Part shown: positions 6,805-54,258 of the stretch, piece by piece
Layout: each line of letters begins with the position of its first letter
Position numbering within the stretch: position 1 is the stretch's first letter
Source: an uncultured Gammaproteobacteria bacterium
GTDB lineage: Bacteria; Patescibacteriota; Microgenomatia; Daviesbacterales; UBA10151
Length of the DNA stretch: 64,000 nucleotides
Assembly (NCBI GenBank): GCA_964393525.1
Contig: CAYMTV010000001.1
Span: 1,545-65,544, forward strand
Direction: 5' to 3'
The notes under the pieces: generated by a model
What the model was told of the DNA's origin: nothing
What the model saw: the letters and a program-made list of their open reading frames with translations, nothing else
The model's database searches: none
Position numbers and translations under genes: made by a program

Positions 6805-8277
6805 TTGAGTATGAGTGTTCGGACAAGAATGGCACCATCACCAACCGGTAATCTTCATTTGGGAACTGCTTATGCAACATTGTGGCCATATATATTTGCC
6901 CGCAAAAATGAGCGAAGCTCTTCTTCGAATAATGGGGCATTTATCTTAAGAATTGAAGACACAGACAGAGAAAGATCAACCAAGGAATTTGAAGCAAATA
7001 TTATTGAGGGTCTAGGTTGGTTGGGTTTTTCTTGGGATGAGGGACCATTCCATCAGATGGATAGGTTAGACCTGTACAAAAAGCATGTTGATGAGCTGAT
7101 AGCTTCCAATCAGGCTTACTTTTGCTTTTGCACTAAAGAAGAGTTAGAGGAGGAAAAAAAGAAACAAGCAGAAGCGCACCTGCCGCAGACTTACTCTGGA
7201 AAGTGCCGAAGATTAACAAAAGCAGAAGTTGATCAAAAGAAAAAAGATGGAGTGCCGTATGTGATCCGTTTTAAACTTGCCGAAGAAAGGGGAGTAATAG
7301 AATATCAAGATTTAATCCATGGGAAAATCTCATTTGATTCAAAACTGATTGGTGATACCGTGATCATGCGTCAAAACGGGATTCCTTTATATAACTTCGC
7401 AGTAGTAGTTGATGATATTGATATGGGGATCACCCATGTTATCCGCGGCGATGATCATATCTCAAATACACCAAAACAGATTTTACTCTGGGAAGCATTT
7501 AAAAAGGAACTTCCAAAGTTTGGTCACTATCCGGTGCTACTCAATCAGGATAGATCAGGAAAACTTTCCAAAAGGACCGGATCAGTTTCACTGGATTGGT
7601 ATAAGCATGAAGGATATTTACCGGAAGCGGTTATAAATTATCTGGCCCTTTTAGGATGGACTCCGCCAAATAATAAAGAAATTTTGAACCTAGATCAGAT
7701 AATCGAGCTTTTTGATATTTCGGATATGAACAAAGCAGCAGCTGCCTGGAATGAGCAAAAACTTGATTGGATTAATGGGGAATATATTAGAAAGATGAGC
7801 GATGAAGAGTTAACAAAAAGATTACAAGAGTATTTGGTAGACCATCCGGCTCAAGAAAAAATAGCAATGGTTGTGCCGCTTATTAAAGAACGGATCAAGA
7901 AGCTTTCGGATTTTGTACCCTTGGCAAACTTTTTATTTCAGAAACCCGAATATGACAAACAAGTTTTTGATAAGGTTAAGATTGAAAGCGTGAAAAATGT
8001 CTTAAATAGGGTAGTGGAGGAGCTTCAGAAGATGGAAAAACCTTGGACCTCGGAGAATTTTGAGAATACATTTAAGAAACTGGCAGAAGAATTAAAAATT
8101 TCAAATTTGGATATGTTTCAATTAATCCGTTTAGCTGTCTCTGGACAACTTGTCAGCCCTCCCCTATTTGAATCTATCCAGATTTTGGGTGAAGAGGAAA
8201 CTTTAGAGAGAATTAAATATGTCATAGAAACTTATCCTAATTTCCCCTATCAAAAACCAGTAGCTGATCGATTTTAG
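6805..8277 (+). CDS. gltX: Glutamyl-tRNA synthetase (possibly non-discriminating)
   Basis: HLGT (HIGH) motif, KLSKR (KMSKS) motif, and a CxC...C zinc-binding segment. 490 aa, followed directly by tRNA-Gln. Confidence 0.9.
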   Translation: MSMSVRTRMAPSPTGNLHLGTAYATLWPYIFARKNERSSSSNNGAFILRIEDTDRERSTKEFEANIIEGLGWLGFSWDEGPFHQMDRLDLYKKHVDELIASNQAYFCFCTKEELEEEKKKQAEAHLPQTYSGKCRRLTKAEVDQKKKDGVPYVIRFKLAEERGVIEYQDLIHGKISFDSKLIGDTVIMRQNGIPLYNFAVVVDDIDMGITHVIRGDDHISNTPKQILLWEAFKKELPKFGHYPVLLNQDRSGKLSKRTGSVSLDWYKHEGYLPEAVINYLALLGWTPPNNKEILNLDQIIELFDISDMNKAAAAWNEQKLDWINGEYIRKMSDEELTKRLQEYLVDHPAQEKIAMVVPLIKERIKKLSDFVPLANFLFQKPEYDKQVFDKVKIESVKNVLNRVVEELQKMEKPWTSENFENTFKKLAEELKISNLDMFQLIRLAVSGQLVSPPLFESIQILGEEETLERIKYVIETYPNFPYQKPVADRF

Positions 8278-8596
8278 CAGCCATGATGAAATCATTTTCG
8301 TGAAGTCCTTTGATAAAGTGAGTGGCCAAAGTAATAGTAACTTTGTTATAAACAATTGTGATATTTGGATGGTGGCCTTCTTCTTCTGCAAGATCAGCAA
8401 CTTTATTTACAAAATCAATAGCCGCTCTAAAAGTTTTGAATTCAAATTTTTTCTTTATTTTTAAATTATCCTCTGTAACCCACCCCCCTACTTGTTTTAA
8501 CATTTTCTGTACTCCCCCCGGTTCCATAGGAGGAACCCATGTCTCACAAGGGATACATTTTTTAGAAGCAAGGTCAGACATAGTCTGATTATACAC
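8237..8596 (-). CDS. Pterin-4a-carbinolamine dehydratase (PCD/DCoH family)
   Basis: EEGHHP motif and ~100-aa core. Overlaps the gltX 3' end on the opposite strand. The true start is probably the internal MSDLASKK. Confidence 0.65.
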   Translation of the reverse strand: MYNQTMSDLASKKCIPCETWVPPMEPGGVQKMLKQVGGWVTEDNLKIKKKFEFKTFRAAIDFVNKVADLAEEEGHHPNITIVYNKVTITLATHFIKGLHENDFIMAAKIDQLLVFDRGN

Positions 8597-8625: not shown

Positions 8626-8697
8626 TGCGGGATCGTCTAACGGCAGGACGATAGCCTCTGGAGCTATCTATCTTGGTTCGAATCCAAGTCCCGCAGC
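8626..8697 (+). tRNA. tRNA-Gln (anticodon CUG)
   Basis: Hand-folded cloverleaf. Acceptor TGCGGGA/TCCCGCA with U1-A72, D stem GTCT/GGAC, anticodon stem ATAGC/GCTAT, loop CUCUGGA, T arm CTTGG-TTCGAAT-CCAAG, discriminator G. No encoded CCA. Confidence 0.6.
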
Positions 8698-8708
8698 TTT
8701 GAAAATAA

Positions 8709-8725
8709 ACCACCTATAAAGGGTG
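8709..8725 (+). terminator. Hairpin CCACC-N6-GGGTGG downstream of tRNA-Gln
   Basis: Perfect 5-6 bp inverted repeat followed by an A/T-rich tract. Confidence 0.3.
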
Positions 8726-8814
8726 GTCAATTTTCAAATACGGGATATTTGGATTCTAACCCGCGATTTGCAAAAAAAGTTAGGATAGTTAAATTTCTAT
8801 TTTTACAACTAAAG

Positions 8815-8945
8815 CTTAAGTTTTACTGAAGGAAGCGGGTTCGGCCCTGAGCGAACCTGTGGTGAGCGTAGTCGTACTTCGAGTTCCCTCAGTATGACCC
8901 TGAGTGTTAATCGAATGGGTCGAACCAGTCGAAGGGGGTGTGTTA
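8815..8945. repeat. Structured repeat element, copy A (inverted homolog at 44470-44525)
   Basis: Contains the GGTTCG...CGAACC hairpin, a duplicated CCCTGAG motif, and TCGAATGGGTCGAACC. About 70% identical to the reverse complement of the lon-upstream segment. Confidence 0.5.
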
Positions 8946-8961
8946 TCCAAGTCCCGCAGTT
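8945..8961 (+). repeat. Direct repeat of the tRNA-Gln 3' end (att-like scar)
   Basis: ATCCAAGTCCCGCAG is identical to the last 15 nt of tRNA-Gln and lies 248 bp downstream of it. No T arm or acceptor partner precedes it. Confidence 0.5.
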
Positions 8962-9138
8962 AATTTGTAATATTTCAGCTACAAGCTTGTGTTAATGGCC
9001 CAAAGCTGGTAAAATTAGTTTACTTATTAATGCTAAGAATTTAAGATATAAAAAGCTAAAGCCTTCTGCTTTACTTCTTTTTCTTCCTAAAGTACTTTCA
9101 TTAAAGAATTTAAAAAAGAAAGGCGGTGAAAACTAAAA

Positions 9139-9495
9139 ATGACCAAATTATTTGTTGGGGGTATACCCTATTCACTAACAAATCAAAAGTTGGAAGAAAT
9201 GTTTGCAAAGTTTGGAACGGTAAGTTCAGCGCAGATCATAATGGATAAGTTTACTAACCAAAGCAAAGGGTTCGCTTTTGTAGAAATGCAAAATGACGAT
9301 GAAGCCCAAGCAGCTATCAAAGAACTTGATGGTTACGGTTTGGAAGGGCGCAAAATTGGCGTATCCGTTGCCAGACCCAGAGAAGATCATCAAGGCAATA
9401 GGCAAGGCTTTTCTTCGAATAATAGAAACAACTTTCGGCGTGATAACTTTAGAAAAGGAGGCAGTAGCTTCCTTAGAGGTAGTCACAGAAGATAA
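9139..9495 (+). CDS. RNA-binding protein, single RRM with Gly/Arg-rich tail
   Basis: RNP-2 LFVGGI and RNP-1 KGFAFVEM motifs, with a C-terminal RGG-like tail. Confidence 0.8.
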   Translation: MTKLFVGGIPYSLTNQKLEEMFAKFGTVSSAQIIMDKFTNQSKGFAFVEMQNDDEAQAAIKELDGYGLEGRKIGVSVARPREDHQGNRQGFSSNNRNNFRRDNFRKGGSSFLRGSHRR

Positions 9496-19486: not shown

Positions 19487-20935
19487 ATGCTACCTAAAAA
19501 AATTGCCTTTGTTGATGTGGAAACAACCGGTGCAAGATGGTCTGACAGAATAATTGAAATTGGTATTGTCAGAGTTGAAGAGAATAAGGTGGTTCGGACA
19601 TATGAAACACTTATAAATCCAGGTTGTTATGTTCCAGAAGAAATACTGACCTTAACCGGCATTAACCCTGCTGAACTGGAGAATTCCCCAAGCTTCGGGC
19701 AAATAAAGCGAGAGATATTAGAGATTTTAGATGACAGCGTTTTTGTAGCTCACAACGTTCGTTTTGATTATTCTTTTATCAGGAATGAGTTTAAAAGAGA
19801 AGAAATCACCTTTAAACATAAGCATTTCTGCACGGTAAAACTCTCCCGGGCGCTTTTCCCAGAGCTTCCTCGTCACAATTTGGATAGCATAATTGAGTGT
19901 TTTGGATTCAAATGCCAAAGACGCCATCGGGCTTTAGATGATGCCAAAGTTTTGTACCAGTTTTGGGAGCATATTCAAAAGAAATTTTCTCAGGAGGAAA
20001 TTTTACTAAGCTTAAACAAAGCCCTCAAAAGACCCGCAATTCCAATAAAAATCTCCCAGGATGATTTGGACAACTTACCGGAAGCCCCCGGTGTATATAT
20101 CTTTTACGGAGAAAACGGGATGCCTTTATACGTCGGTAAATCTGTCAATATCAGGGATCGCATACTATCCCATTTTTCATCAGACCATCTTTCTTCAACC
20201 GAAATGAGAATCAGCCAGCAGATTCAAAGCATAGAGACAATTATTACGGCAGGGGAACTGGGAGCTTTGATCAAAGAAGCCAGTTTAATCAAACAAATGC
20301 AACCTTTATATAACAGAAAGCTTAGGCATTCAAGGCTAATGACAGTATTGAAAAGTAAGCAGACTGAAGATGGTTATCTAACGATTGAGATGGATACAGC
20401 AGGCAACATAGATATTAATCAACTGGATAGTGTTTTGGGAGTCTTCAGGAATAAAAAAAGTTGCAAAGATTTTTTAGTAAGCATAGCCAAAGAGTACGAG
20501 CTTTGCGAGCGGCTTTTAGGGGTGGATACGACTTTAAAATCCTGTTTTGGATATAGGTTAGGCAGATGCAAAGGAGCCTGTTTAGGAAAAGAGAAGTTCC
20601 CTAAATATAATATTAGGTTTATTGAAGCTTTCTCAAAAACTAAAATAGTCCCCTGGCCATTTGACGGACCGGCTGTGATTATGGAAAAAAATTCTGATGC
20701 TGATTTGCAAGAAGGGTTTGTTATAGATAAGTGGTGCTACTTGGGAAGCATTAAAGGTGCAGCTAGTGACAGCCTGGAAAAACTGGAAAAGGACTTGTGC
20801 TTTGACCTTGATACCTACAAGATATTACTTCAATATTTAGCATCGGGTAAAACTTTGAAAAACGTAAAATTGTTAAAGTCCGGTAGTTTTTACCCACGAA
20901 AAACCCCGCACGTAGCGGGGATTCTCGAGAACTAA
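19487..20935 (+). CDS. DnaQ-like 3'-5' exonuclease fused to GIY-YIG nuclease domain (Cho-like)
   Basis: DEDDh motifs FVDVETTG, HNVRFDYSF and HRALDDA, then a GIY-YIG segment GVYIFYGENGMPLYVGKS...R...H. Confidence 0.75.
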   Translation: MLPKKIAFVDVETTGARWSDRIIEIGIVRVEENKVVRTYETLINPGCYVPEEILTLTGINPAELENSPSFGQIKREILEILDDSVFVAHNVRFDYSFIRNEFKREEITFKHKHFCTVKLSRALFPELPRHNLDSIIECFGFKCQRRHRALDDAKVLYQFWEHIQKKFSQEEILLSLNKALKRPAIPIKISQDDLDNLPEAPGVYIFYGENGMPLYVGKSVNIRDRILSHFSSDHLSSTEMRISQQIQSIETIITAGELGALIKEASLIKQMQPLYNRKLRHSRLMTVLKSKQTEDGYLTIEMDTAGNIDINQLDSVLGVFRNKKSCKDFLVSIAKEYELCERLLGVDTTLKSCFGYRLGRCKGACLGKEKFPKYNIRFIEAFSKTKIVPWPFDGPAVIMEKNSDADLQEGFVIDKWCYLGSIKGAASDSLEKLEKDLCFDLDTYKILLQYLASGKTLKNVKLLKSGSFYPRKTPHVAGILEN

Positions 20936-23968: not shown

Positions 23969-25003
23969 ATGATTCACCAAAAAGCCTATCTAAATCCAAA
24001 ACTGTTTGATAAAGATATAGAACAAATTCCTTCCAGGAAAGGGTTTGGGGAAGGGTTGGTTTTAGCAGGGGAAGAGAATAAAAATGTTGTAGGGCTTTGT
24101 GCGGATTTAACGGAAAGCACAAAGATGGATAAGTTTAAGGAAAAATTTCCTGATCGCTTTATCGAAGTTGGGGTAGCTGAGCAAAATTTGGTAACAGTTG
24201 CCTCAGGCATGGCAGCAGCCGGAAAAATTCCTTTTGTTTCCTCCTATGCAACTTTTTCTCCGGGAAGAAACTGGGAACAAATAAGAACTACTATTTGTTA
24301 CAATGACCGGCCTGTCAAGATAGTGGGTTCCCATGCAGGAATATCGGTTGGTCCAGATGGAGCAACCCATCAGGCCTTAGAGGATATTGCGTTAATGCGG
24401 GTACTGCCAAATATGGTGGTGATAGTCCCAGCAGATGCAATTGAAGCTAGAAAAGCCACAGTGGCTATGGCCCATGACCCAAAACCTAATTATTTAAGAT
24501 TATCCCGGGCTGATGTTTCTGTTATCACCACAGAACAAACTCCTTTTGAAATTGGTAAAGCCGAAGTTTTCCATGAAGGTAATCCTTCGACTCCCTCTGG
24601 TCGCTCAGGACGCTTCGCGCATGTAACAGTAATCGCTTGTGGGCAGATGGTTTATCAAGCTTTGCTGGCTGCACATGAATTACAAAAGGCTGAAAGAGGT
24701 AAAATTAGTGTTCGAGTAATAAATTGCCACACAATCAAACCTTTGGATAAAAAAACAATCCTAAAAGCTGCCGAAGAAACCGGTGCAATTGTTACGGCAG
24801 AAGAACATCAAGTTCATGGAGGATTTGGATCTGCTATTGCTGAACTTGTTTCACAACACTACCCGATCCCCATAAAAATGGTAGGAATAGAGGACCACTT
24901 TGGCGAGTCAGGCGAGCCACATGAATTATTAGAAAAGTTTGGACTTTTAAAAAAGGATATTATTAAAGCTATAACTCAAGTATTAAGACTAAAGAACAAA
25001 TGA
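23969..25003 (+). CDS. tkt: Transketolase, C-terminal subunit (split tkt)
   Basis: Pyrimidine-binding and C-terminal domains (FIEVGVAEQN, GSHAGISVGPDGATHQ), 344 aa. Confidence 0.85.
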   Translation: MIHQKAYLNPKLFDKDIEQIPSRKGFGEGLVLAGEENKNVVGLCADLTESTKMDKFKEKFPDRFIEVGVAEQNLVTVASGMAAAGKIPFVSSYATFSPGRNWEQIRTTICYNDRPVKIVGSHAGISVGPDGATHQALEDIALMRVLPNMVVIVPADAIEARKATVAMAHDPKPNYLRLSRADVSVITTEQTPFEIGKAEVFHEGNPSTPSGRSGRFAHVTVIACGQMVYQALLAAHELQKAERGKISVRVINCHTIKPLDKKTILKAAEETGAIVTAEEHQVHGGFGSAIAELVSQHYPIPIKMVGIEDHFGESGEPHELLEKFGLLKKDIIKAITQVLRLKNK

Positions 25004-44469: not shown

Positions 44470-44525
44470 TTGACCCATTCGACTTCGCTCAGGGTTAATA
44501 CTGAGTGAAATTGAAGTATTGACAT
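44470..44525. repeat. Structured repeat element, copy B (inverted relative to 8815-8945)
   Basis: The reverse complement reads CAGTATTAACCCTGAGCGAAGTCGAATGGGTC, matching copy A blocks ACCCTGAG and TCGAATGGGTC. Confidence 0.5.
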
Positions 44526-52454: not shown

Positions 52455-53140
52455 GATTTATTGTTTCACAATATAATTTGGATATGAGTATAGAGATAAA
52501 AATCAGACCGGGGATTACGGAAATTGCTGCTGGGGTAAAAGCCAAAGTAGGACTTCTTAGGCGAAAATTGAGAGATGCGAGCGAAACTGCTCTTCATGAA
52601 ACAGAACACCTCCTAACATTATTACTAAGAAGAAAGGGATTTAGAAGAGCTACAATTAATCCCGGGCCAGGATATCTTGGAATGGTTGAGCCATACGAGT
52701 ATGATGCGCCTTCCTTTGCAGCGCCTGCTGCAAGGTGCCGAGGTGGCGTAGGGCATGATTTGGCTGTTGTTGCAGCTATGGGAGATGATATTGGTATTGC
52801 AAAGTCAGTAGCCAACAGCACCTTAGCTGGAAACGAAAGAAAATTGCTTGTTGTCGCTTCCAGACTAGAGGAAGAAGGTGAAATTACCCAAACTGATGCA
52901 GAGAGAGCTATAGATGATGATGCAAACCCCTTTGCTCGAATTGAGATATTAGGACCTAATGTAAATAGGAAATTTGAACAAAAAACTTGGGAACAGGAAG
53001 GGCATTTAGTAAGTATTGAGTTAGCGGATTTTGAATTAGATAGCCATCCATTGGCAGAAAAAGTGAACGGAAATATATTAACCTTCAGACCGAGAACCGG
53101 TGTTCATCGTTGGCAAGAACCGGAACTGAAAGTTGGCTAG
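52448..53140 (+). CDS. Hypothetical protein with HExxH motif (possible metallopeptidase-like); likely true start ATG 52484
   Basis: ALHETEHLL contains HExxH. There is no other recognisable family signature. GC content looks higher than the neighbours by eye. Ends 1 nt from tRNA-Glu. Confidence 0.45.
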   Translation: MNRFIVSQYNLDMSIEIKIRPGITEIAAGVKAKVGLLRRKLRDASETALHETEHLLTLLLRRKGFRRATINPGPGYLGMVEPYEYDAPSFAAPAARCRGGVGHDLAVVAAMGDDIGIAKSVANSTLAGNERKLLVVASRLEEEGEITQTDAERAIDDDANPFARIEILGPNVNRKFEQKTWEQEGHLVSIELADFELDSHPLAEKVNGNILTFRPRTGVHRWQEPELKVG

Positions 53141-53214
53141 TACCGCGTACGGGAGTCGAACCCGTGATTTCATGGATGAGAACCATGTGTCCTAGGCCAC
53201 TAGACGAACGCGGC
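53141..53214 (-). tRNA. tRNA-Glu (anticodon CUC)
   Basis: Reverse complement GCCGCGTTCGTCTAGTGGCCTAGGACACATGGTTCTCATCCATGAAATCACGGGTTCGACTCCCGTACGCGGTA gives a canonical cloverleaf and is close to E. coli tRNA-Glu. Confidence 0.85.
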
Positions 53215-53270
53215 AAGTCAAACTTGCCAGCCGAGTTTGACTCGGCGGCGTAGAGTAAATTTTAACAAAT
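53213..53270 (-). repeat. ~60-bp hairpin-containing repeat upstream of tRNA-Glu (copy 1)
   Basis: GCAAGTCAAACTTGCCAGCCGAGTTTGACTCGGCGGC...AATTTTAACAAAT. The 36-nt core is identical to 54153-54190. Confidence 0.5.
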
Positions 53271-53293
53271 TTCTTGGTTTTATTCTAATAGAG

Positions 53294-54040
53294 TTAATAT
53301 TTTAAAGGTGGGGTTTTTGGAAATGGTCTTCTATTTTCTGGAAGGAGATCAGCGATACTTGTTTGAATTAATAAAGCAGGCTGGGATAATTGCTTTAAAT
53401 ATTCTTCTTCTGAAAGAGATCTTCTTTGTTTTCTTAAATCATGCCATGGACTTAAATCTAAGTTTGGTCCAGTTTTGACAATAATTTTTTCTGGTTTAGG
53501 TAATATAGCTCCTGGAGGTAAAGCTTCATATGTTCCAATTTGGACTAAGGGAAATGATGGTGTGCCTTGTCTGGAAGCTTCAATAGCGAGTAACACTAGA
53601 GTCTGATTCATGGAGCCTAATCTTCCGCTCCTGCTTCTAGTACCTTCGGGTGCTATACATATAGTTCTCCCGTGTCTTAATTCATCCAAGATCCTTCTCA
53701 CGGCGGCTAGATCCTGGCCATTTCTATTAACATAAATGGCACCCCATTGATTTAACATCCAGCCAACAACTGGAATTTTTCCCATAGATTCTTTTACAAC
53801 CATGGTTGTGGTGGGGTTGTGATAGGGATCAGCTACCATTGAGGCAATTGTATCAAGTAAGCTAAAATGAGAGGTAAGAGCAATAGCCGGGCCTTTCTTT
53901 GGTAAACTGGGATCAAAGTCAACTTCCAGTTTATGGTAAAAGCTCATATAAGCTCCCAAGACTCCTTTCATTATTTTTTGGGCTGGTTTGTCTAAATTTG
54001 GATTTGGTTGTTTGGAAGTTGGATTTAGTCTTTCACCCAT
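53294..54040 (-). CDS. plsC: 1-acyl-sn-glycerol-3-phosphate acyltransferase
   Basis: HFSLLD (HX4D) and IAPEGTRS motifs, 248 aa. Confidence 0.8.
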   Translation of the reverse strand: MGERLNPTSKQPNPNLDKPAQKIMKGVLGAYMSFYHKLEVDFDPSLPKKGPAIALTSHFSLLDTIASMVADPYHNPTTTMVVKESMGKIPVVGWMLNQWGAIYVNRNGQDLAAVRRILDELRHGRTICIAPEGTRSRSGRLGSMNQTLVLLAIEASRQGTPSFPLVQIGTYEALPPGAILPKPEKIIVKTGPNLDLSPWHDLRKQRRSLSEEEYLKQLSQPALLIQTSIADLLPENRRPFPKTPPLKY

Positions 54041-54074
54041 AATGACTTAAGGCAATTTTGAAATTGTAACATAG

Positions 54075-54152
54075 TATCTCCACCCTCGGGGTGAATTAGG
54101 TTCACACTCGGGATCCTCGATCCCGACTGTGTCGTGGATCGGGAACGAACCA
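54075..54152 (-). ncRNA. Highly structured 5' leader or small RNA between repeat copy 2 and plsC
   Basis: Three consecutive perfect hairpins (CACCC-TCG-GGGTG, GTGAA-N5-TTCAC, CGGGATC-CTC-GATCCCG). It does not fold as a tRNA. Confidence 0.25.
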
Positions 54153-54213
54153 GCAAGTCAAACTTGCCAGCCGAGTTTGACTCGGCGGCTTGAGAGAACA
54201 ATTTTAACAAATC
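54153..54213 (-). repeat. ~60-bp hairpin-containing repeat (copy 2)
   Basis: Same 36-nt core and AATTTTAACAAAT tail as 53213-53270. Confidence 0.5.
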
Positions 54214-54258
54214 TGAGCGTATCTTTCATCTTAGCTTCAAAAAATATATACTTTAGCA

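Follow-up and report, generated by a model that had tools for sequence, protein, structure and literature searches.

Introduction

The closest described system to the locus reported here is the free-standing GIY-YIG homing endonuclease SegB of phage T4. Its gene, segB, lies in the phage tRNA gene cluster and is described as transferred non-reciprocally together with flanking sequence (PMC2330249). The cassettes considered below share with segB the placement of a small GIY-YIG gene among or beside tRNA genes, and the conversion tracts that we observed at the loci labelled L131/L134 and L042 resemble segB transfer. They differ from segB in that the Seg proteins are larger and have DNA-binding domains, whereas the cassette protein has ~85-90 aa and consists of the catalytic domain only; in that the hosts are cellular CPR genomes, not phage; and in that duplicated tRNA ends delimit the cassettes, which also contain hairpin blocks, while the copy at the locus under study has no nuclease gene. 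The literature that we searched does not describe tRNA-linked small GIY-YIG cassettes, or their hairpin blocks, in CPR bacteria, and the cassette family linked to GIY-YIG genes is apparently undescribed so far.

Genes of tRNAs are textbook landing sites for integrases. Like integrative elements that target tRNA genes, the cassettes show a direct repeat of the 3' end starting from the T-loop, a regenerated tRNA, and empty sites in relatives. Unlike such elements, they come with no integrase that we could find, span 0.1-0.5 kb, have mirror-image counterparts that duplicate the tRNA 5' end, and show recombinational co-conversion. The hairpin blocks carried as cargo are similar to the palindromic elements that Ogata et al. 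reportedly described in Rickettsia in 2000, as well as to REP and MITE-like repeats: they are short hairpins with covarying closing stems, present in several copies, both between genes and in frame in the gene of a conserved enzyme. However, the blocks belong to a different sequence family (X-GAGYG..RNTCGA-X') that is associated with GIY-YIG genes, and the likeness covers the blocks, not the tRNA-end duplication. In the atp6 gene of Allomyces, Paquin et al. are said to have found, in 1994, a mobile endonuclease ORF carrying a replacement 3' end of its host gene. As with such fungal mitochondrial ORFs, the insertions described here bring a substitute 3' end and leave the displaced original end downstream, and the same is seen for the GIY-YIG C-terminus in L090 and L136; in contrast to the fungal case, the target is a bacterial tRNA gene, the repeat has 15-22 nt, and miniatures with no ORF are common.

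A tRNA-Gln gene followed by a second copy of its 3' end

The DNA analysed, referred to as the window, is a 64-kb stretch with G+C content of 39%. By its GltX homologues the host is Candidatus Daviesbacteria (CPR/Microgenomates); the nearest GltX relative in the database is only 77% identical. The locus contains, in this order, gltX (6805-8277, plus strand), the gene of pterin-4a-carbinolamine dehydratase, PCD (8237-8596, minus strand), tRNA-Gln, a gap of 440 nt, and an RRM gene coding for an RNA-binding protein (9139-9495, plus strand). An exact-protein look-up of the RRM gene returned the same strain alone. On the contig of a relative with 76% GltX identity, compared by gene order only, gltX and PCD are in the same order as in the window and are followed, after a 90-nt gap, by a GIY-YIG gene (90 aa).

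The features of the tRNA-Gln locus, along with two related hairpin blocks elsewhere in the window, are as follows.

8626-8697, plus strand: tRNA-Gln(CTG), intact, no encoded CCA (ARAGORN; Rfam RF00005, 57.9 bits over 8626-8696)
8682-8696, plus strand: DR1, ATCCAAGTCCCGCAG (exact-match search)
8698-8740, plus strand: trailer; terminator-like hairpin (stem 8708-8728) between TTTGAAAAT and ATTTTCAAA (terminator-like site prediction)
8741-8761, plus strand: IR, an inverted, slightly diverged copy of the last ~21 nt of the tRNA, CGGGATATTTGGATTCTAACC (local alignment score 12.5, z 5.2)
8762-8830, plus strand: AT-rich spacer with no recognised feature (no promoter-like site on the plus strand)
8831-8843, plus strand: GGAAGCGGGTTCG, resembling the 5' half of a T-arm (comparison with L050 and L080)
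8844-8944, plus strand: cargo X', one long-form nested hairpin block and a 6-nt linker (nhmmer, BLAST)
8945-8959, plus strand: DR2, or relic, the second copy of the tRNA-Gln 3' end, with no CCA after it (exact-match search)
24581-24616, minus strand: canonical short-form block CCTGAGCGACCAGAGGGAGTCGAAGG, 36 nt (nhmmer, E=3.9e-8)
44472-44518, minus strand: related block copy, intergenic between a cobA-like gene and lon (BLAST; weak in nhmmer, E 0.26-0.38)

The initial annotation had stated that the last 15 nt of tRNA-Gln recur 248 bp downstream, that chance was an unlikely cause, and that no cloverleaf accompanies the second copy. All of this was borne out. The 15-mer ATCCAAGTCCCGCAG is identical in 15/15 nt at 8682-8696 and 8945-8959, with a spacer of 248 nt (8697-8944); 0.07 matches were expected in the window, two copies were reached in 0/100 dinucleotide shuffles, and a search of both strands of the 64-kb window with up to two mismatches gave no third match. 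The whole unit of 263 bp (8697-8959) is single-copy within the window. ARAGORN, and Rfam at E<=10, found no tRNA signal in 8698-8959. We also considered a decayed tandem duplicate of tRNA-Gln (a pseudo-tRNA) and rejected it, as there is no 5' half or cloverleaf and only the T-arm-like GGTTCG and the last 15 nt remain. The identical stretch is present in two independent Logan assemblies from other runs (L001 and L002), which rules out an assembly chimera or artefact.

DR1 opens with the two final nucleotides of the T-loop and takes in the 3' strands of both the T-stem and the acceptor stem, along with the discriminator base. The upstream copy completes the functional tRNA, which is followed by the terminator-like hairpin of the insert itself; the downstream copy is a relic. 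The junction of an empty site would be ...CCCGCAG joined straight to TTAATTTGTAATATT.

Anatomy and folding of the insert

The insert in the window has no ORF, in agreement with the earlier description of the enclosed segment as integrase-free. The terminator hairpin is the centre of an imperfect palindrome of 87 nt (8675-8761; self inverted match of 74%, E 3e-6) whose right arm is IR. This arm pairs with DR2 or, alternatively, with DR1. An attempt to read 8741-8765 as a direct, though diverged, repeat of the tRNA 5' end was abandoned, since the alignment to the inverted 3' end was much better (19/22). The cargo is ~100 nt long, richer in G+C, and has the layout CCCTGAGCGA..GTGGTGAG..inner block (8875-8921)..TCGAACCAGTCGAAGGGGG; it is positioned inside the would-be T-loop of the relic.

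Folding of the single strand 8736-8962 gave -69.1 kcal/mol (z = -2.64), with 1/200 shuffles folding as well. The predicted minimum free energy structure is closed by a terminal stem of 12 bp, in which 8741-8746 and 8749-8754 pair with 8945-8956. Since IR pairs with the relic, the insert closes into a stem-loop. Viewed as an inverted repeat, this stem has the duplicated target itself as one arm, the duplication being 15 nt of tRNA. Given this terminal stem and the complementarity of 8758-8764 to 8835-8841, the relic is best seen as a copy of ~22 nt of the tRNA 3' end (GGTTCG...ATCCAAGTCCCGCAG) with its T-loop split by the cargo. For the shorter interval 8815-8965, the fold on either strand was no better than that of shuffled sequences (z -0.6). 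Thus, the assertion that the enclosed DNA is highly structured is borne out only in part, by 8736-8962 with its 12-bp stem and not by 8815-8965.

Rfam searches of the insert (at the gathering threshold and at E<=10) and of seven cassette loci (at E<=0.1) returned tRNAs alone; no Rfam family was found for the hairpin blocks, the leaders or the mini-inserts.

Recurrence at tRNA genes of related species

A survey in which each species was represented by one genome, and in which the 5' half of the window tRNA-Gln was the query, produced 88 tRNA-Gln loci from CPR bins; ~78 of them had enough downstream sequence. A second copy was counted where the final 15 nt of the tRNA at a locus recurred with two mismatches or fewer. 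Such a copy was observed in 10-11 of the ~78 loci, always within 450 nt, compared to a chance expectation of ~0.25 in total. The periods were 125 nt (L033), 127 nt (L040, same as L058), 128 nt (L076), 136 nt (L064, a tandem array), 153 nt (L061), 155 nt (L050), 211 nt (L080), 263 nt (the window), 376 nt (L004, same as L005) and 392 nt (L035). A further case is L042, where the relic differs from the live copy. The repeat follows the T-stem variant of each host and always starts at the last nucleotide of the T-loop.

The remaining ~67 of the 78 loci have no second copy. The architecture recurs, with some related species having it and others lacking it. The suggested comparison with relatives for an empty site at tRNA-Gln gave a positive answer: five loci without a second copy (L007, L023, L053, L078 and L087) have the identical 15-mer. 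None of the loci without a second copy is a close orthologue of the window locus, and BLAST searches with the flanks following the relics gave no empty-site homologues. Of the contigs from the closest GltX relatives, those with sequence on record stop shortly past gltX.

The same arrangement was seen at tRNA-Gly (L011, L050) and at tRNA-Phe (L050). Upstream copies of a tRNA's own 3' end were absent, except for two neighbouring tRNA-Leu paralogues. In L051, two further relic-like copies (..CCTGTCCCGCAG), each after a complementary CGGGAC, are situated downstream of a tRNA-Gln ending in CCAGGTCCCGCAG; these were left out of the 10-11 cases.

The short inserts follow the plan of the window insert: a terminator hairpin, an inverted copy of the tRNA end in various degrees of decay, a GGTTCG-type motif, a variable cargo and the relic. 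A terminator design with a CTTGTG loop follows the tRNA in L033, L040, L050 and L080. The window and L050 have the motif GGAAGCGGGTTCG in identical form, and L080 has it in nearly identical form; as it is kept while the T-stems of the three hosts differ, it belongs to the insert and not to the host. The terminal stem between IR and the relic is predicted in the window, L061, L064 (z = -8.2), L040 and L033. A strict search for the inverted copy (at most four edits) detected it in L061 and L077 only, while scored local alignment detected the others.

Hairpin blocks of the cargo and their other copies

We built an HMM from six blocks situated beside GIY-YIG genes in other metagenomes. Its best match in the window, near full length, is the cargo at 8846-8935 (nhmmer E=1.8e-4), part of a long nested hairpin block that spans 8843-8937. 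BLAST also ties the window cargo to the GIY-YIG leaders of L090 and L065. By sequence similarity, the cargo belongs with the nested hairpin repeats found on the flanks of small GIY-YIG genes and is homologous to the cargo of GIY-YIG cassettes. The 205 distinct block instances conform to X-GAGYG...RNTCGA-X', where X and X' pair at 2.34 of 4 positions compared to 1.79 +/- 0.06 in permuted controls, and covary (for example, TCCT/AGGA, CCAT/ATGG, TCCC/GGGA, CCCT/AGGG and TGGT/ACCA). Hammerhead and k-turn readings of the blocks were a poor fit by inspection.

A relation of the enclosed DNA to a second locus, proposed earlier, was confirmed: 8875-8921 aligns to 44518-44472 on the minus strand with 81% identity over 48 nt. 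The canonical block at 24581-24616 is inserted in frame in the gene of the transketolase C-terminal subunit (ORF 23969-25003, plus strand), and lengthens the protein by 12 residues (NPSTPSGRSGRF) that the solved homologue PDB 6yaj lacks. It belongs to the same repeat family and lies outside the tRNA-Gln insert. The blocks, with copies at 8846-8935, 24581-24616 and 44472-44518, are short, ORF-less, hairpin-forming and multi-copy.

Two side observations concern sequences of this kind. In L090 (2700-2860) and in L136 a hairpin block is inserted at the 3' end of a GIY-YIG gene; the gene now has a substitute C-terminus, with the displaced original C-terminal piece just downstream; this is the same logic of a replacement end plus a relic as at the tRNA. 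Separately, a 16-nt sequence of the window spacer, AAGCTTAAGTTTTACT (8813-8828), also occurs in L104 at ~1318-1333, just upstream of a cassette with a tRNA fragment and a GIY-YIG gene; it may be shared by chance or may be a common piece of cassettes.

Association with small GIY-YIG nuclease genes

The larger cassettes at the same position in relatives carry a GIY-YIG gene. The GIY-YIG ORF between the repeats is frameshifted in L004/L005 and intact in L035 (Pfam PF01541, E ~1e-17), and L131/L134 have an intact ORF of this type between repeats with a period of 467 nt. The order in L131/L134 is a tRNA ending in ATCCTTGTCCCGCAG, a leader, the GIY-YIG gene, a block, the relic ATCCTAGCCCCGCAG and CCA. 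The enclosed nuclease is a single-domain protein of ~85-90 aa. In L065 and L090 the GIY-YIG gene directly follows tRNA-Gln.

A metagenome scan with the GIY-YIG proteins of the cassettes produced 80 loci. In 20 of the 80 a tRNA was present within 700 nt of the GIY-YIG gene; it was tRNA-Gln in 20/20, and in 19 of these it was located upstream and on the same strand. About 54 of the 80 loci of this GIY-YIG clade had no tRNA within 2.5 kb. In the species-representative set (L006-L093), more divergent small GIY-YIG genes were found within 700 nt of 17/87 tRNA-Gln genes and 6/57 other tRNAs. Many of the divergent genes are situated just upstream of a tRNA, behind a 5' relic of that same tRNA (L014, L070, L088, L059 and L041); these relics are interrupted in the D-loop, the anticodon loop or the T-loop.

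When eight diverse small GIY-YIG proteins were used as tblastn queries, the 64-kb window yielded no small GIY-YIG gene; the link to the nuclease therefore rests on the relatives and on the shared repeats. The sole GIY-YIG domain detected by Pfam in the 40 largest ORFs of the window is in a 482-aa fusion with a DnaQ-type exonuclease (19487-20935, plus strand), which is probably a housekeeping repair enzyme and not a cassette nuclease.

Signs of movement and duplications of tRNA 5' ends

The host tRNA-Gln of L122 has a different 3' end; downstream of it come a foreign fragment, AATCCAAGTCCCGCAGCC (the 15-mer of the window), and then a GIY-YIG leader. In L104 a 3' fragment of tRNA-Gln, with no complete tRNA, precedes the cassette. 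From these two loci, cassettes appear to travel with pieces of tRNA.

The near-identical strains L131 and L134 differ by an extra ORF-less cassette of 100 nt in the tRNA D-arm of L134, which has a 15-nt repeat (ATTGCGGGATCGTCT) at its ends. The tRNA just downstream of this cassette carries 13 substitutions, and both outer flanks are identical between the strains. Such a pattern would be expected of recombinational repair off a foreign donor, unlike site-specific integration; gene transfer followed by ordinary homologous recombination could also account for the difference. At L042 a new T-arm is found in the live tRNA and the canonical Daviesbacteria end in the relic, which suggests co-conversion of flanking sequence. 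At the window locus DR1 and DR2 are identical.

A mirror-image arrangement was observed in the window at tRNA-Glu(CTC) (53140-54215, minus strand). The promoter-like leader of this tRNA has a second copy ~940 nt upstream, in which 37 nt match exactly (53213-53249 = 54153-54189). Beyond the leader, this second copy runs on into a diverged 5' half of tRNA-Glu with a block-like hairpin (gtcgggatcgaggatcccgagtg) near the anticodon arm, and is followed by a PlsC-type acyltransferase gene (53294-54040). This locus is a 5'-type tRNA-end duplication with a metabolic gene as cargo. Similarly, L037, L055, L059 and L066 have a tRNA-Gln 5' part that stops past the D-arm or partway through the anticodon arm, with a complete tRNA-Gln located further downstream; in L059 a GIY-YIG gene lies between the fragment and the full gene. 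These fragments are 5' relics, not introns.

Interpretation of the locus

With about even confidence, we interpret the 263-bp unit at 8697-8959 as a nuclease-less miniature, or fossil, of the CPR cassettes that duplicate tRNA ends and whose fuller members encode a single-domain GIY-YIG nuclease. The way the cassettes move we infer from comparisons of sequences. In autonomous copies, the nuclease of ~85-90 aa would cut tRNA genes that lack a cassette, at a loop or close to one. A copy with a cassette would then be the template for repair and, in the manner of homing, the cassette would be passed on along with a replacement tRNA end and part of the flanking tRNA sequence. The window copy would descend from, or be moved by, such a nuclease; it would be mobile only with a nuclease supplied from elsewhere in the genome, or else immobile.

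The main rival explanation, which we hold to be unlikely, is a scar of local repair or replication: two hairpins, the terminator and the T-arm, would have been sites of fold-back or template switching, by which the tRNA 3' end was triplicated in place in direct-inverted-direct order, no mobile cassette would ever have been involved, and blocks would have colonised the relic later. Such an origin agrees with DR1, IR and DR2 all being derived from the host's own tRNA (with IR near-perfect in L061 and L064), with the centring of the palindrome 8675-8761 on the terminator hairpin, with the tandem array of the unit in L064, and with the independent insertion of blocks elsewhere. Being present at other places in the window, even in a coding gene, the blocks may indeed have colonised the relic independently of the cassette. 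It is harder to reconcile with the parts not derived from tRNA that are kept between different hosts (GGAAGCGGGTTCG and the CTTGTG-loop terminator design), with the foreign tRNA fragments that accompany cassettes (L122, L104 and the relic of L131/L134), and with the GIY-YIG genes that occupy the same DR-bounded position. The local scar and the cassette are not fully exclusive, because repair of nuclease breaks could leave such scars. Less likely than the local scar are an integrase element and a selected RNA module. The repeats had been taken in the initial annotation for the classic attL/attR signature of site-specific integration, and the enclosed DNA for either a decayed integrative element or a non-autonomous miniature one. 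Two marks of an integrase scar, the bounding direct repeat and the empty sites in relatives, are present. Integrases targeting the T-loop yield a direct repeat of the tRNA 3' segment starting in this loop, as the window repeat does, and the joined ends of the insert (..GGTTCG + AATCC..) would rebuild a T-loop, like an attP core. However, a recombinase gene is absent from the 40 largest ORFs of the window: the Pfam scan of this set found no integrase, recombinase or transposase family, and the recommended search for integrases targeting tRNA-Gln was negative to that extent. The 10-11 independent tRNA-Gln inserts have 99-392 nt, none being longer, which is too small for an integrase; the genes that are enclosed code for GIY-YIG nucleases; L131/L134 show a conversion tract; and duplications of tRNA 5' ends at D-loop and anticodon-loop positions are left unexplained by integrase decay. 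The attL/attR interpretation is not supported, and of the two types of element proposed the non-autonomous miniature fits best. That the copies are attL and attR of a tyrosine or serine integrase element that lost nearly all of its DNA seems to us highly improbable.

We regard it as very unlikely, too, that the insert is a selected RNA module in which IR and the relic form, on a read-through transcript, a 12-bp mimic of the tRNA acceptor/T-arm helix; the mimic would be recognised by RNase P, RNase Z or the CCA-adding enzyme as a signal for processing or for the 3' end, or would insulate the tRNA from the RRM gene. In favour of such a module, the terminal stem is predicted in 5/6 mini-inserts, CCA often follows the relic but not the live copy (in L050 at tRNA-Gly and tRNA-Phe, and in L061), and the insert is on the same strand as the downstream RRM gene. 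Yet ~85% of tRNA-Gln loci do without the insert, including some with the same tRNA; the cargo varies widely in sequence and in length (27-100 nt); the window relic has no CCA; no Rfam family matches; and the folding z-scores, except for L064, are modest.

Significance for CPR bacteria

Beyond the cassette interpretation of the single locus, we tentatively propose, as a possibility that we consider more doubtful, that a class of mobile cassettes not yet described exists in CPR bacteria. Its members would land in the T-, D- and anticodon loops of tRNA genes, and the tRNA would stay functional because they duplicate or carry the 3' or the 5' end of the gene. This class would have autonomous forms, with a GIY-YIG nuclease made of the catalytic domain only, and miniature forms composed of X-GAGYG..RNTCGA-X' hairpin blocks, and the blocks would also enter coding genes in frame. 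The GIY-YIG nuclease may recognise the structure of the tRNA gene. If such a class exists, the window holds three traces of it, namely the tRNA-Gln mini-cassette, the 5'-type duplication at tRNA-Glu and the transketolase block.

As a single case the window locus is modest; it led to a recurrent and apparently undescribed system. A footprint of the integrase type appears to arise here without an integrase, in the CPR/Patescibacteria, whose mobile elements are poorly known. There is a practical side as well, since such repeats break short-read assemblies at tRNA genes, and several Logan contigs end at the locus. If the GIY-YIG link holds, the cassettes present a testable case of a minimal nuclease targeting tRNA genes and a way for mobile elements to enter an essential single-copy tRNA without killing it; they would also explain many of the odd 'hypothetical' peptides and in-frame insertions in CPR annotations.
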